Shown here one piece after another: positions 30,388-35,117 of a stretch of DNA of 64,000 nt (positions are counted from its first letter, which is position 1; the number at the start of each line of letters is the position of its first letter). Under the pieces are notes generated by a model, which worked only from the letters and a program-made list of their open reading frames with translations, searched no databases and was not told where the DNA came from. This DNA comes from Escherichia coli. Lineage in GTDB: Bacteria > Pseudomonadota > Gammaproteobacteria > Enterobacterales > Enterobacteriaceae. The position numbers and the translations under genes are program-made. The stretch lies in NCBI RefSeq assembly GCF_003018255.1, contig NZ_CP027440.1; one strand, 5' to 3'.

Positions 30388-31221
30388 GTGAAAAAAACAC
30401 AGCAAAAAGAAATCGAAAATGTGACAAATATCACAGGTGTTCGTCAAATTGAGTTATGGCGGCATGATGATTTACAACACCCACGGTTAGATGAGGTGGC
30501 GGAAGAAGTTCCCGTTGCGCTGGTCTACAACGGTATTTCGCATGTGGTGATGATGGCGTCGCCCAAAGACCTTGAGTACTTTGCGCTCGGTTTTTCGCTT
30601 TCCGAGGGGATAATCGAAAGTCCGCGCGATATCTTCGGCATGGATGTCGTTCCTTCCTGTAATGGTCTTGAAGTTCAAATTGAGCTTTCCAGCCGCCGCT
30701 TTATGGGGTTGAAGGAGCGTCGCCGGGCACTGGCGGGACGTACGGGATGTGGCGTGTGCGGCGTGGAGCAACTTAATGACATCGGAAAACCGGTGCAGCC
30801 GCTACCGTTCACCCAGACGTTTGATCTCAACAAACTGGATGATGCATTACGTCATCTCAATGATTTTCAGCCAGTGGGGCAACTGACCGGTTGTACTCAC
30901 GCCGCCGCCTGGATGTTGCCATCTGGCGAACTGGTCGGCGGGCATGAAGACGTGGGTCGCCATGTGGCGCTGGACAAACTGTTAGGCCGCCGGTCACAAG
31001 AAGGGGAAAGCTGGCAGCAAGGTGCGGTACTGGTTTCCAGCCGTGCCAGTTATGAAATGGTGCAAAAGTCGGCGATGTGCGGCGTAGAGATTTTGTTTGC
31101 GGTGTCTGCCGCGACCACACTTGCTGTAGAAGTGGCTGAACGCTGTAATTTGACGCTGGTGGGCTTTTGTAAACCGGGTCGGGCAACGGTTTATACCCAT
31201 CCGCAGCGTTTGAGCAATTAA
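30388..31221 (+). CDS. fdhD: Sulfurtransferase FdhD (formate dehydrogenase accessory protein)
   Basis: 277-aa ORF with a GTG start and the conserved GRTGCGVCG cysteine loop. Confidence 0.95.
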
Positions 31222-31225
31222 TTAA

Positions 31226-31264
31226 AATAAGTCCTGCGATATATATTAAATTGCAGGACTTATT
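31226..31264 (+). terminator. Stem-loop after fdhD
   Basis: AATAAGTCCTGC-N15-GCAGGACTTATT, a 12-bp stem followed by a T-rich CATTTC. Confidence 0.5.
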
Positions 31265-31270
31265 CATTTC

Positions 31271-32000
31271 GTGAATTTTATTATTTTATTTATAAACAAA
31301 ACGCGTGTAGTGGCGTTAACGCCTGCGTTGCAACCTATTGATGGCGTGGCGGTGAGTTATATTGATGCTGCCGTAGCGTTGGGTAATACCATTAACGAAA
31401 TGGATAAATATTACATCCAGGAAAATTATAAAGACGATGCGTTTGCGAAAGGGAAAACGCTGCACCAGACATTCTTAAAAAATCTGGAAGCCTTTGAACC
31501 TGTAGCAGAATCTTATCATGCGGCGATTCAGGAAATTAATGACAAGCGCCAGCTTACGGAATTGAAAAATATTGAAGAAAGAGAAGGGAAAACATTCCAC
31601 TACTACTCTCTGGCAGTCATGATTTCAGCGAAACAAATTAATAACCTGATATCGCAAGATAAGTTTGATGCAGAAGCGGCAATGAAGAAAGTGTCTGAAC
31701 TGGAAACGCTGGTGGCGCAGGTCAAAGAAGCGGATAAAAGCGGCATGAATTTCTCGTTTATTAATTCGGCAGGCCAGTATCAACTCGAGGCTAAAAAATA
31801 CGTTCGCCGCATCAGAGATAAAGTCCCGTACTCTGACTGGGATAAAGAGCAACTTCAGGACGCAAACTCAAGCTGGATGGCCGAAGACTCATTTCCCGAG
31901 AGCATTATGCGAGTACAACGAAATGGTCGATGAAATATTTCAGTCAATTGTAATCGCGGAGCGGGTTTGTGATGAGCGCGGATATGTCACGAAGTCGTGA
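31271..32000 (+). pseudogene. yiiG: yiiG remnant: N-terminally truncated and probably frameshifted near the 3' end
   Basis: The 220-aa ORF starts at a GTG with no RBS in AT-rich DNA and has no signal peptide. Similarity to K-12 YiiG (351-aa lipoprotein, from memory) begins only at about VALTPALQPIDGVAVSYIDAA. After SSWMAEDSFP the +1 frame continues as PRALCEYNEMVDEIFQ... to a stop at 31998-32000. Confidence 0.5.
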
Positions 32001-32353
32001 CAATATAAAGCAGAGTGAAGGATAAATTTTGTGAATAAAGTATCATTATTTAATGATTTTGTGAATGTTTAAATGTCTCAGATAATTTGTTTAAGCGTTA
32101 TTTATATTTGTGGCTTATGAGTCAGCGTGAATCATATCTAATATTTTTTACGATTTTTAGTTAAAAACGGCACTATTGTTATATTCCTCACGTTCCAGGA
32201 AATCAGCGGATTTACTCATATTATGCAGCGGGATACTATCCATCGGCCTGCTGAAGTTGGATTAAAAATTCGAAAGTGCACACCTTATATTTCTCTATAT
32301 ACGTATTCCTTTTGGAAAGCGTAGGGTCTCTTTTATTTCAGGGAACGTAAATA

Positions 32354-33748
32354 ATGAAAAAATCGACATTATCTTTAGCCATCGGTTTATTATTGGCATG
32401 TAGTACCGGAATGGCAAAAACACAGCATTTAACGCTGGAACAACGCATGGCATTGCTGGAAGAACGCCTGGAAGCGGCAGAAATGCGGGCAGCAAAAGCA
32501 GAGAGCCAGGTTAAACAGCTGCAGACACAACAAGCCGCTGAGATCCGCGAAATTAAGGCTGCCCAGGGCAATACGCCGGTAAATGGACAGGCAACGGCGG
32601 AATCTGCAAAGAAAAATTCCACCTCACCTAATCTTTTGCTCTCAGGTTATGGCGATTTAAAAATCTACGGCGACGTAGAATTTAATATGGATGCGGAAAG
32701 TAATCATGGCCTTCTGGCAATGACCAACGCTGATGTGAATAGCGATCCCACTAATGAACAGTGGAATCTCAATGGTCGTATTCTGTTAGGTTTTGATGGT
32801 ATGCGAAAACTGGATAATGGTTATTTCGCCGGGTTCTCCGCACAACCGCTGGGGGACATGCACGGTTCAGTAAATATCGATGATGCGGTATTCTTCTTTG
32901 GCAAAGAAAACGACTGGAAGGTCAAAGTAGGTCGTTTTGAAGCCTACGATATGTTCCCGCTGAATCAGGATACCTTTGTTGAACATTCCGGTAATACTGC
33001 GAACGATCTTTATGACGATGGCAGCGGTTATATCTATATGATGAAAGAGGGCCGCGGGCGCTCTAACGCTGGCGGTAATTTCCTCGTCAGCAAACAACTT
33101 GATAACTGGTATTTTGAATTAAACACGTTACTTGAAGACGGAACATCTTTATATAATGACGGTAATTATCATGGACGCGATATGGAGCAGCAGAAAAATG
33201 TTGCTTATCTGCGTCCAGTAATTGCCTGGTCGCCGACGGAAGAATTCACCGTTTCCGCAGCGATGGAAGCGAACGTAGTAAATAATGCTTATGGTTATAC
33301 CGATAGCAAGGGTAATTTTGTCGATCAGTCCGATCGTACCGGCTATGGTATGAGCATGACCTGGAATGGCCTGAAAACGGATCCGGAAAATGGTGTCGTG
33401 GTTAATCTTAATACCGCCTATTTAGATGCTAATAATGAGAAAGATTTCACTGCCGGGATTAACGCGCTGTGGAAACGTTTCGAGCTCGGTTATATCTACG
33501 CGCACAATAAGATTGATGAATTCAGCGGTGTAGTTTGTGATAACGACTGCTGGATTGATGATGAAGGGACGTACACCATTCACACCATTCATGCGTCTTA
33601 TCAGTTCGCTAATGTGATGGATATGGAGAACTTTAATATTTACCTCGGGACGTATTACTCCATTCTGGATAGCGACGGTGATAAAAAACACGGTGATGAT
33701 ACTGATGACCGTTACGGGGCACGCGTTCGCTTTAAATACTTCTTCTGA
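32354..33748 (+). CDS. Outer-membrane glycoporin-like beta-barrel with N-terminal coiled-coil extension (ScrY/RafY-like)
   Basis: 464-aa ORF. A signal peptide (MKKSTLSLAIGLLLACSTGMA) is followed by about 50 aa of heptad-like helix (LEQRMALLEERLEAAEMRAAKAESQVKQLQTQQ). The rest has an alternating aromatic/polar beta-strand pattern and ends in the terminal RFKYFF motif. It occupies the place of the K-12 frv operon. Confidence 0.7.
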   Translation: MKKSTLSLAIGLLLACSTGMAKTQHLTLEQRMALLEERLEAAEMRAAKAESQVKQLQTQQAAEIREIKAAQGNTPVNGQATAESAKKNSTSPNLLLSGYGDLKIYGDVEFNMDAESNHGLLAMTNADVNSDPTNEQWNLNGRILLGFDGMRKLDNGYFAGFSAQPLGDMHGSVNIDDAVFFFGKENDWKVKVGRFEAYDMFPLNQDTFVEHSGNTANDLYDDGSGYIYMMKEGRGRSNAGGNFLVSKQLDNWYFELNTLLEDGTSLYNDGNYHGRDMEQQKNVAYLRPVIAWSPTEEFTVSAAMEANVVNNAYGYTDSKGNFVDQSDRTGYGMSMTWNGLKTDPENGVVVNLNTAYLDANNEKDFTAGINALWKRFELGYIYAHNKIDEFSGVVCDNDCWIDDEGTYTIHTIHASYQFANVMDMENFNIYLGTYYSILDSDGDKKHGDDTDDRYGARVRFKYFF

Positions 33749-33788
33749 TGAAGTCGCGGTGCTGGATATTTTCCGGCACCGCAACTCA

Positions 33789-34103
33789 TTAAGGCAGGTA
33801 AAACACTTCTTGCAGCTCGCTACTGACTGGGCTGTTATCCGGGTTAGTTGGCATAACGTCGGTCATATATTTCCACCAACGTTGGCAAACATCAGTACTG
33901 GCTACCGCATTCCACCGTTCTTCAGATTCAATCTCTACCGTGGCAAACAGCAGATTACGCGCTTTGTCGAGGTAAATGGCGTAGTTATGCGCACCGTGAG
34001 ATTTCAACACTGCTTCCAGTTCCGGCCAGATTGGATTATGACGACGCTGATACTCTTCGTGGGCGTCGGGGTTAACCTGCATGACAAAGGCTTTGCGGAT
34101 CAT
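33789..34103 (-). CDS. rhaM: L-rhamnose mutarotase
   Basis: 104-aa ORF ([30 protein letters not shown]...). Confidence 0.95.
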
Positions 34104-34112
34104 GTTTGCTCC

Positions 34113-34937
34113 TTACAGCGCCAGCGCACTGGCGAGTGGTGTAACGCCGAAACGCTGGCCGAGCGCTATCAGCTCTTCACGACTGATGGTCTGTTTCATG
34201 CCGCCCATCGAATAAACCTTCACTAATACTTGTGCTGATTTTTCTGCGGTGTCGATTAAACCGAATGTTTCATCCAGTGTCGGACCGCTGCCGAAGACGC
34301 CGTGGAAGGGCCACAACACCAGCGAATGTTTTTGCATTTCCTGTGCGGTCGCCTGGCCGATTTCGTCGGTGCCGGGCACCATCCACGGCAAAATGCCGAC
34401 GCCATCCGGGAACACTACCAGACATTCGGTGCTGCCTTCCCACAGTTGGCGAGTGAAGACCGCGGTGTCGTTTTCCAGTACGTAGGTAAGGGCGATCAGG
34501 TTGGTGGCATGGCAGTGCATGATCACCCGATCTTTACCGTTGGTGGCTTTAATGCGCTCGCAGTGGGAGAGAAAGTGAGCCGGAAGTTCGGAAGTGGGGA
34601 CGGCTTTGTTGGTTAACCCCCAAAGAATGTGGTAGCCCGCGCCGTCGCTGTCGACTTTTACGATGCCTAAGTTAGCCGCAGGATCAAGCTGGACGTTACG
34701 GAAGAATTTGCCTGAGCCGGTGACAATAAACGGTGTATTTGCCAGTAAAGGCATGGGCTGGCTGAGCGGGATATAGCGCGGTTGTTGGTGAAAATTGTCG
34801 TGATATGGTGCGATATCGGCGTCATCCAGGCGCAGCGTCAGGTTGCCGCCGTTGCGCTCGTCCCAGCCTTTCAGCCAGGCGTCGGTGGTGGCTTTAATCA
34901 TTCCCTGGACAAACCAGGACTGAGTAATGTTTTGCAT
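34113..34937 (-). CDS. rhaD: Rhamnulose-1-phosphate aldolase
   Basis: ORF 34113-35030. I place the start at [13 protein letters not shown] (ATG at 34935-34937), giving the 274-aa K-12 length. Confidence 0.95.
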
Positions 34938-34990
34938 GTTCGGTGTTCCTGTTAATTGGACGTCCGTGCCTGTTGCCGGATATACGATCT

Positions 34991-35117
34991 GTAGGCCGGA
35001 TAAGGCACTCGTGCCGCATCCGGCAATCAATGCCTGATGCGACGCTGTCGCGTCTTATCAGGCCTACAACTATTGCCGACCCGTAGGCCGGATAAGGCAC
35101 TTGTGCCGCATCCGGCA
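34991..35117. repeat. BIME cluster (three REP units) between rhaD and rhaA
   Basis: GTAGGCCGGATAAGGCAC..GCATCCGGCA occurs twice, flanking TGCCTGATGCGACGC..CTTATCAGGCCTAC. Confidence 0.85.

Follow-up and report, generated by a model that had tools for sequence, protein, structure and literature searches.

The window analysed here, a 64,000-nucleotide (nt) stretch of the Escherichia coli contig NZ_CP027440.1, carries next to the L-rhamnose mutarotase gene rhaM a gene for a porin of 464 amino acids (aa), which is a chromosomal member of the RafY family (Pfam Porin_8, PF16966; TCDB 1.B.15). A preliminary description, made from the letters of the window, had presented the gene as an orphan sugar porin that replaces the phosphotransferase system (PTS) operon frvABXR of K-12. 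This replacement is not borne out, because the two loci coexist in many genomes and the junctions show separate deletions; comparison with K-12 alone had created the false impression. Taken as a whole, the explanation that we consider likely is a chromosomal RafY-family porin that forms a wide diffusion channel, has its own promoter and owes its present surroundings to a history of deletions. The gene is already annotated and already mentioned in the literature (as rafY2, and as rafY without rafABD), so that the observation itself is ordinary and known. There is little here for discovery, and the main use of the work lies in correcting the history of the locus. The analysis adds a three-state deletion history, a deep porin–rhaM slot, a 16-strand general-porin-like fold and a conserved CRP-like promoter, each at the strength given below.

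The ATG-initiated open reading frame (ORF; 32354..33748, plus strand) contains exactly the motifs quoted in the preliminary description, and its product matches PF16966 (‘Porin-like glycoporin RafY’) over profile positions 1–372 of 372, on aa 104–464 (E = 3.1e-154; 513.9 bits against a cut-off of 25), which argues against a chance reading frame. A single 464-aa outer-membrane porin gene next to rhaM is thereby confirmed, and the profile search returns a porin family, RafY, and not a non-porin family. The earlier remark that RafY is of similar size was correct but understated the relationship: in addition to the full-length profile match, the protein is 77–79% identical, over 97–100% of its length, to the porin that closes the rafRABD operon of IncF plasmids, these IncF porins, and not the original pRSD2 RafY, being the comparison sequences. 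Upstream of the plasmid porin, the IncF operon encodes a LacI regulator, an alpha-galactosidase, a major facilitator superfamily (MFS) permease and a glycoside hydrolase of family GH32 (invertase). RafY of the pRSD2 type has the same length of 464 aa and the same succession of signal peptide, coiled coil, linker and Porin_8 barrel ending in RFKYFF, but the chromosomal gene sits in a slot between fdhD and rhaM and has no rafRABD beside it in E. coli. A near-identical genome (99.9% over 3 kb) annotates the gene as ‘carbohydrate porin’ (RefSeq), and the O157:H7 protein in the same 90%-identity cluster is named ‘Glycoporin RafY’ in UniProt. No NCBIfam family model matched the porin, and a PDB sequence search gave chance matches only (E about 0.8, dehydroquinase), hence no solved relative by sequence. 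One report mentions ‘a rafY homolog annotated as rafY2’ in O157:H7 strains without rafRABD (PMC4809568), and a 2026 study gives a complete rafABD operon for only 23 of 45 rafY-positive E. coli isolates (PMC12987596); the orphan state of rafY is therefore already on record.

The deletion history emerges from comparison with the intact locus of O157:H7, in which the order is fdhD-yiiG-frvR-frvX-frvB-frvA(−), 477 bp, porin(+), rhaM(−). In the window, the porin lies between a remnant of yiiG and rhaM, with which it is convergent, and two segments of the O157 locus are gone. The smaller, of 471 bp, lies in the intact locus between two copies of the 8-bp direct repeat GTGGCGTT; the larger, of 4.79 kb, comprises the last 19 bp of yiiG, frvR, frvX, frvB, and frvA through its start codon. 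What is left of yiiG is without its promoter, its 5′ end and its final 19 bp, and is labelled ‘YiiG family protein, frameshifted; incomplete’ in RefSeq. K-12 has lost a different 1.72 kb, consisting of 289 bp upstream of the porin, the entire porin gene and 39 bp downstream (pairwise blastn). Among 5426 complete E. coli genomes, the porin is present at 80% coverage or more in 2556 (about 47%), and the remainder are K-12-like. The frvA–porin junction, with both frv and the porin, is kept in 1379 of the 5426, including O157:H7, whereas the arrangement of the window (porin, no frv) occurs in 1166, strain 536 among them; the listed matches of the latter kind (H97–H101) all begin at query position 443. 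ST131 (JJ1886) shares the frv deletion junction of the window, and Nissle has the porin. Because an outgroup Escherichia lineage (L013) and Trabulsiella carry frvRXBA-porin-rhaM, yiiG-frvRXBA-porin-rhaM is the ancestral Escherichia order and the K-12 state is derived. Since a quarter of E. coli genomes, as well as the outgroup Escherichia, have both frv and the porin, the lineage of this strain deleted frv, and the K-12 lineage the porin, in independent events.

Further observations bear on how often this region has been cut. Strain HS30-1 retains only the last 77 bp of the porin gene, a remnant that differs from the K-12 state, so that E. coli has lost the porin through no fewer than two distinct deletions. 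Where the porin is missing, K-12 MG1655 (L006, 7013–7123) has 111 bp of sequence unrelated to the O157 locus. The feature of ST131 (JJ1886) that matches the yiiG remnant bears the annotation DUF3829 protein, with no pseudogene label, for which reason the 471-bp and 4.79-kb deletions may be separable.

The position beside rhaM is conserved well beyond E. coli. In a synteny sample of 80 loci (one genome per species, typed by a marker panel), all of the approximately 50 loci at about 66% identity or more occupy the same fdhD...porin(+) rhaM(−) slot, in Escherichia, Citrobacter, Kluyvera, Klebsiella, Raoultella, Pseudocitrobacter, Enterobacter, Scandinavium, Superficieibacter, Trabulsiella and Pseudescherichia (about 12 genera). 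In most of these orthologous loci fdhD lies upstream of the porin, and in nearly all rhaM lies downstream. The intervening upstream genes vary between frvRXBA-azlCD followed by a helix-turn-helix (HTH)/cupin gene, azlCD-HTH/cupin alone, frvRXBA alone and, in Klebsiella and Raoultella, azlCD-HTH/cupin-rafR-rafA-rafB. Where identity is 65% or lower, the loci are paralogues in other positions, such as the end of an operon with ATP-binding cassette (ABC) transporter, GH13 and GH130 genes in Buttiauxella. In a neighbour-joining tree, the slot orthologues broadly track the relationships of the genera, with plasmid RafY branching as the sister of the chromosomal clade of Escherichia. We propose that the porin has long resided in the fdhD...rhaM slot of Enterobacteriaceae. 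In an E. ruysiae assembly (L022, 3083–10000), selA-selB and genes for an iron-dependent alcohol dehydrogenase and an aldehyde dehydrogenase lie directly upstream and replace fdhD, yiiG and frv; a large rearrangement breakpoint therefore lies just upstream of the porin, which has stayed with rhaM.

The slot also connects the porin to raffinose genes in some genera. rafRAB adjoins the slot porin in Klebsiella, Raoultella, Superficieibacter and Enterobacter, and the rafR-rafA-rafB-porin clusters of Klebsiella and Raoultella and the frv-porin-rafRAB clusters of some Enterobacter contain the orthologous porin (74–76% identity) in the same slot by rhaM. These clusters have retained a regulator of the LacI type, an alpha-galactosidase of family GH36 and a permease of the LacY type, whereas E. 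coli, Citrobacter and Kluyvera do not. In three Enterobacter loci (L030, L048 and L059), rafR-rafA-rafB follows the porin and, wherever rhaM can be seen, stands between the two genes. Because raf lies on one side of the porin in these Enterobacter loci and on the other in Klebsiella and Raoultella, it must have joined the porin, or been rearranged around it, in more than one way. A tblastn search with RafR, RafA, RafB and RafD found no raf genes or remnants in the window or in the O157, Citrobacter and Kluyvera loci. The statement that no cognate transporter or hydrolase stands beside the porin is thus true of this genome; the alternative that the gene belongs to a known operon split across the locus applies in part, in that the slot orthologue of Klebsiella and Raoultella ends rafR-rafA-rafB.

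A conserved promoter region travels with the gene. The 420 bp upstream of the porin are AT-rich (34% GC) and include a predicted CRP-like box of the form TGTTA-N6-TCACG, with invariant half-sites and a variable spacer in 39 of 50 orthologous loci drawn from many genera; conservation is 90% or more in the box and 30–60% in its flanks. A TTTAC motif, 80–90% conserved, follows at a fixed distance of +34 from the start of the box, and a TAnTnT hexamer lies 17 bp further on. This spacing would put transcription initiation near 32246 and the box centre at −61.5, the geometry of a class I CRP promoter. A consensus promoter scan with a cut-off of 9/12 gave no more sites than in shuffled sequence, and the proposed promoter, at 8/12, is not among them. 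The same upstream box is found in the Klebsiella sp. B345/R390 and R. lignicola type, and in the Klebsiella rafB–porin spacer, where it comes after a terminator-like hairpin; given this last occurrence, the porin appears to be its own transcription unit even beside raf. The conservation of the box suggests that the gene has its own catabolite-controlled promoter, from which it would probably be switched on by catabolite de-repression, not by a neighbouring operon. Plasmid RafY differs in this respect: its rafD–rafY spacer does not significantly match the region upstream of the chromosomal gene.

The porin is under purifying selection, as its ratio of non-synonymous to synonymous divergence (dN/dS) is 0.025–0.05 among Escherichia alleles, in backgrounds with and without frv alike. 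The values for rhaM and rhaD are as low, and their dS is equal or higher, which rules out unusually fast divergence of the porin. Across E. coli lineages, dS reaches 0.15–0.30 in rhaM/rhaD and 0.09–0.17 in the porin (33789–35030 compared with L003 and L004), and this high synonymous divergence over the locus suggests that the allelic lineages are old or that the rha region has recombined.

These data weigh against the gene being a relic without present function, silent or in decay, of a chromosomal raf operon that has been lost. Such a fate would agree with the erosion of its neighbours by deletions and with the half of E. coli, K-12 included, that live without the porin; the AT-rich promoter region is typical of H-NS targets, and K. 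pneumoniae RafY is described as barely recognised by sera of infected mice (PMC13410258). Yet the reading frame is intact in at least 2556 genomes, the dN/dS is as low as that of rhaM and rhaD, the promoter elements are kept across genera and tblastn detected no raf pseudogene fragments, and we regard a relic as unlikely.

Against the E. coli chromosomal gene, rafY of the IncF plasmid p1002-4 (L002, 7950–9344) has a dS of about 0.96, a higher dN of 0.13 and a dN/dS of 0.14, and against Citrobacter, Kluyvera and Klebsiella its dS is saturated. Plasmid rafY may thus have come from an Escherichia-like chromosome and changed more rapidly thereafter. Some E. coli genomes have up to three matches to the porin gene. 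On the ET210 chromosome (L005, 395–9318), a full rafR-rafA-rafB-rafD-rafY set, with rafY annotated as frameshifted, is part of an integrase-bearing island at tRNA-Phe; the 77–79% identity to the window porin covers the porin of such a chromosomal raf island too.

The predicted architecture of the protein agrees with the preliminary description, which had read a signal peptide, a heptad-type helix and a barrel ending in RFKYFF, and had taken the whole for a sugar-type porin of the outer membrane extended at its N-terminus by a coiled coil; the sequence, an alignment of 42 RafY-family members and an AlphaFold2 (AF2) model support this reading, with the coiled coil in the periplasm. The model has a helix at residues 28–69 followed by about 16 strands over aa 101–463, and its quality is moderate (mean predicted local distance difference test score (pLDDT) 62; predicted template modelling score (pTM) 0.61), with most strands at 70–90 and residues 59–97 below 50. 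The barrel is complete in the model and strongly conserved in the alignment, and its aromatic C-terminal residue, Phe464, is invariant. Foldseek ranked OprB, VhChiP, PorB and OmpU as the top matches, and in the fold comparison the 16-stranded porins OprP, VhChiP and OprB came above the 18-stranded LamB and ScrY. Consistent with this, TCDB is cited as predicting 16 strands for the RafY family (PMC4827864). We therefore describe the barrel provisionally, in both strand count and pore geometry, as having about 16 strands and a general-porin-like architecture resembling OmpF, OprB and ChiP. The likeness is one of fold: the trimeric 16-stranded porins OprB, VhChiP, OprP, OmpF/OmpC and DcaP are only 8–15% identical in sequence and have no profile-level relationship to the porin, which does not match the profile of the OprB carbohydrate-selective porin family. 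DcaP also has an N-terminal coiled coil.

Within the barrel, aa 203–236 (32960–33061; PLNQDTF...GNTANDLY.DG.GYIYMMKEGRGR) are the most conserved stretch of the family and the least confident part of the modelled barrel (pLDDT below 50); they belong to the pore-lining region and may form an in-barrel constriction loop. A Cys-x3-Cys pair at aa 395–399 (C-DNDC; 33536–33550), in a predicted external loop that is also poorly modelled, is kept in most family members, with Cys395 conserved in at least 90%; Cys395 and Cys399 probably form a loop disulfide.

The N-terminal helix had suggested ScrY, for which such an extension was considered the hallmark. In one heptad register, 9 of 11 a/d positions are hydrophobic (2–5 in the other six registers). 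Residues E29, Q30, R31, E36, R38, L39, E43 and E50 and the block LEQR..LE.RL.AAE.RA..AE are invariant in the 42 family members. The Pfam domain Sugarporin_N (PF11471) falls below its threshold in this porin (15.3 bits against a cut-off of 25.7; E = 0.024) and is matched by 37 of the 42 family members at E ≤ 0.01 (best E 3.9e-7). Because of these 37 matches, we consider the coiled coil, on sequence grounds, a probable family-wide trait of the Sugarporin_N type, related to that of ScrY. By profile, and by the moderately confident fold, the barrel is not of the LamB/ScrY type. ScrY and LamB (TCDB 1.B.3) are likewise outer-membrane carbohydrate channels, and ScrY carries a periplasmic coiled coil of the Sugarporin_N type. 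A sugar-specific glycoporin of this type, with an 18-stranded barrel, a greasy slide and a binding site, is nevertheless quite unlikely here: Pfam gave no LamB-family match and PDB no sequence match to LamB or ScrY, both at E ≤ 1, the AF2 model has about 16 strands and not 18, and general porins resemble it more closely in structure.

The neighbours of the gene provide two further explanations, both of which we judge to be very improbable. The porin could be the outer-membrane partner of the frv PTS, divergent from frvA and left over here after deletion of the operon. The two genes do share a 477-bp divergent intergenic region in the O157-type arrangement, which is found in the 1379 genomes mentioned above and in Trabulsiella. 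However, azlCD and the HTH-cupin gene lie between frv and the porin in Kluyvera, Citrobacter amalonaticus, Scandinavium and Pseudescherichia, the porin occurs without frv in many genera, the conserved promoter block is present with or without frv and dN/dS is equally low in frv-negative lineages. PTS sugars, moreover, are small and normally need no dedicated large porin.

Alternatively, the porin could be tied to rhamnose catabolism, for instance through uptake of rhamnose-containing oligosaccharides, a link raised by the preliminary description, and be controlled by RhaS/RhaR. Only synteny speaks for it: the convergent porin–rhaM pair is kept in about 50 loci of about 12 genera while the upstream side varies, and the E. 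ruysiae breakpoint leaves the porin with rhaM. Adjacency in related genera is, however, what vertical inheritance leads one to expect, and the pair is interrupted by rafRAB or other insertions in ten loci (L030, L035–L037, L044, L047, L048, L053, L056 and L059). The two genes are convergent with a strong hairpin between them, so they cannot be co-transcribed, and the porin has its own conserved upstream region, which gives only chance matches of 10 nt or less to the rhaBAD/rhaSR and rhaT control regions. Literature searches on frv with porin and on glycoporin with rhaM found nothing relevant.

At its N-terminus, the porin has the usual layout of a signal peptide (MKK, a hydrophobic core and GMA|KT). 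The preliminary description had called the cleavage type ambiguous because of a lipobox-like LLAC, which is indeed present. Cys16 of this motif is confined to Escherichia-type and some plasmid sequences; most orthologues read LLVANTGxA|KT, with Asn or Ala at position 16. Ala21 is conserved at 90% or more in the family alignment. Because Ala21 is conserved and the cysteine is not, a signal peptidase I cut after Ala21 is more likely than lipidation at Cys16. That the protein is a lipoprotein acylated at Cys16 is barely credible: although LLAC and the lysines near the N-terminus fit a permissive lipobox pattern, the cysteine is missing from most orthologues, the −1 position of the AxA-like site (Ala21) is conserved and integral beta-barrel porins of this class are not normally lipidated.

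Together, these results lead us to the following proposal. The precursor would be exported by the Sec pathway and cut by signal peptidase I after Ala21, and residues ~98–464 would insert into the outer membrane as a ~16-stranded barrel. Residues ~27–69 would form a ScrY-type periplasmic coiled coil that probably bundles the three subunits of a trimer. Plasmid RafY is reported as a general diffusion pore that is not substrate-specific, in a title cited in PMC4827864; PMC4809568 and PMC12987596 likewise cite work on this channel. By analogy, the barrel would be a wide, non-saturable channel that passes di- to oligosaccharides at low external concentration, with raffinose, sucrose and maltodextrins as proposed substrates crossing the outer membrane. 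The gene would be a separate transcription unit with its own conserved promoter and a predicted CRP-like box near −61.5. The data show the family membership, the deletions, the synteny, the purifying selection and the conserved box upstream, whereas we infer pore properties, trimer formation, cleavage site, CRP control and transcription start.

Several points count against this proposal. The pore properties are carried over from a homologue, plasmid RafY, of 78% identity, and the model is only moderately confident, the most conserved block being poorly modelled. With an upstream region so low in GC, the gene may be hardly expressed in cultured cells. In the left half-site of the CRP-like box (TGTTA), T replaces an important G, and another regulator could bind the box. 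With regard to raf, rafRAB could be ancestral and lost, or could have been inserted beside the porin in some genera; either would fit.

A more far-reaching version, in which the porin is no leftover but a self-contained, catabolite-controlled scavenger channel that selection has maintained next to rhaM throughout Enterobacteriaceae, independently of raf, frv and rha, and an Escherichia-like copy was the source of plasmid rafY, is tentative and, as a package, rather doubtful. If it were true, presence or absence of the porin in E. coli would have a measurable effect on foraging for oligosaccharides in the gut and on how readily large antibiotics enter the cell; the gene is retained in the O157:H7, 536, ST131 and Nissle lineages and deleted in K-12-like ones. 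The related K. pneumoniae porin GlyP is reported to suffice alone, once de-repressed, for a fitness gain in a gut community (bioRxiv 10.64898/2026.03.29.715108). GlyP belongs to the RafY family like the E. coli porin, but is encoded in a regulator-permease-hydrolase-porin operon repressed by the LacI-type GlyR. By analogy, its fitness effect lends some physiological plausibility to the presence/absence polymorphism in E. coli. A large-channel porin that is missing in K-12 and kept by many pathogenic lineages is of modest practical interest; it may affect the uptake of plant oligosaccharides, among them raffinose and stachyose, and possibly permeability to antibiotics, for which a related porin of Klebsiella provides a recent example.

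Table 1. Coordinates in the window of the porin gene's parts, its control region and its neighbours, with the basis of each assignment.
Feature	Position	Strand	Basis or remark
fdhD	30388..31221	+	ORF list and annotation of the 99.9%-identical genome; left anchor of the fdhD...rhaM slot
471-bp deletion junction	31310..31317		Overlapping blast segments; O157 locus (L003) 657–1127 gone
yiiG remnant (pseudogene)	31310..31933	+	blastn to O157 locus L003 positions 1128–1750
4.79-kb deletion junction	31933..31934		L003 1751–6541 gone
Porin upstream control region, retained part of the frvA–porin divergent intergenic	31934..32353	+	Alignment with O157, Citrobacter and Kluyvera
CRP-like box TGTTATATTCCTCACG	32177..32192	+	8/10 half-site bases of TGTGA-N6-TCACA
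Putative core promoter	32211..32239	+	Inferred hexamers: −35 TTTACT 32211–32216, 17-bp spacer, −10 TACTAT 32234–32239
Imperfect palindrome CGTATTCCTTTTGGAAAGCG, predicted 5′ untranslated region (UTR)	32302..32321	+	Kept in Escherichia and Citrobacter
Signal peptide, aa 1–21	32354..32416	+	Predicted signal peptidase I cleavage GMA|KT
Periplasmic coiled-coil helix, aa ~27–69	32432..32560	+	AF2 helix 28–69, heptad register, conservation
Variable linker, aa ~70–97	32561..32644	+	Poorly conserved columns, low model confidence
RafY-type (Porin_8) beta-barrel, aa ~98–464 plus stop codon	32645..33748	+	C-terminal beta-signal ...RFKYFF
GC-rich hairpin between the porin and rhaM stop codons	33756..33782		RNA fold −29 kcal/mol, z = −6.9
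rhaM (L-rhamnose mutarotase), convergent neighbour	33789..34103	−	ORF list, annotation

Two small elements flank the coding sequence. The hairpin between the porin and rhaM folds better than any of 200 shuffled sequences (0/200 fold as well) and has no T-run after it on either strand; it is a candidate bidirectional terminator. An Rfam scan of 31000–34300 at E ≤ 1 gave no match. The palindrome of the predicted 5′ UTR might serve as an operator or fold into a hairpin in the RNA.

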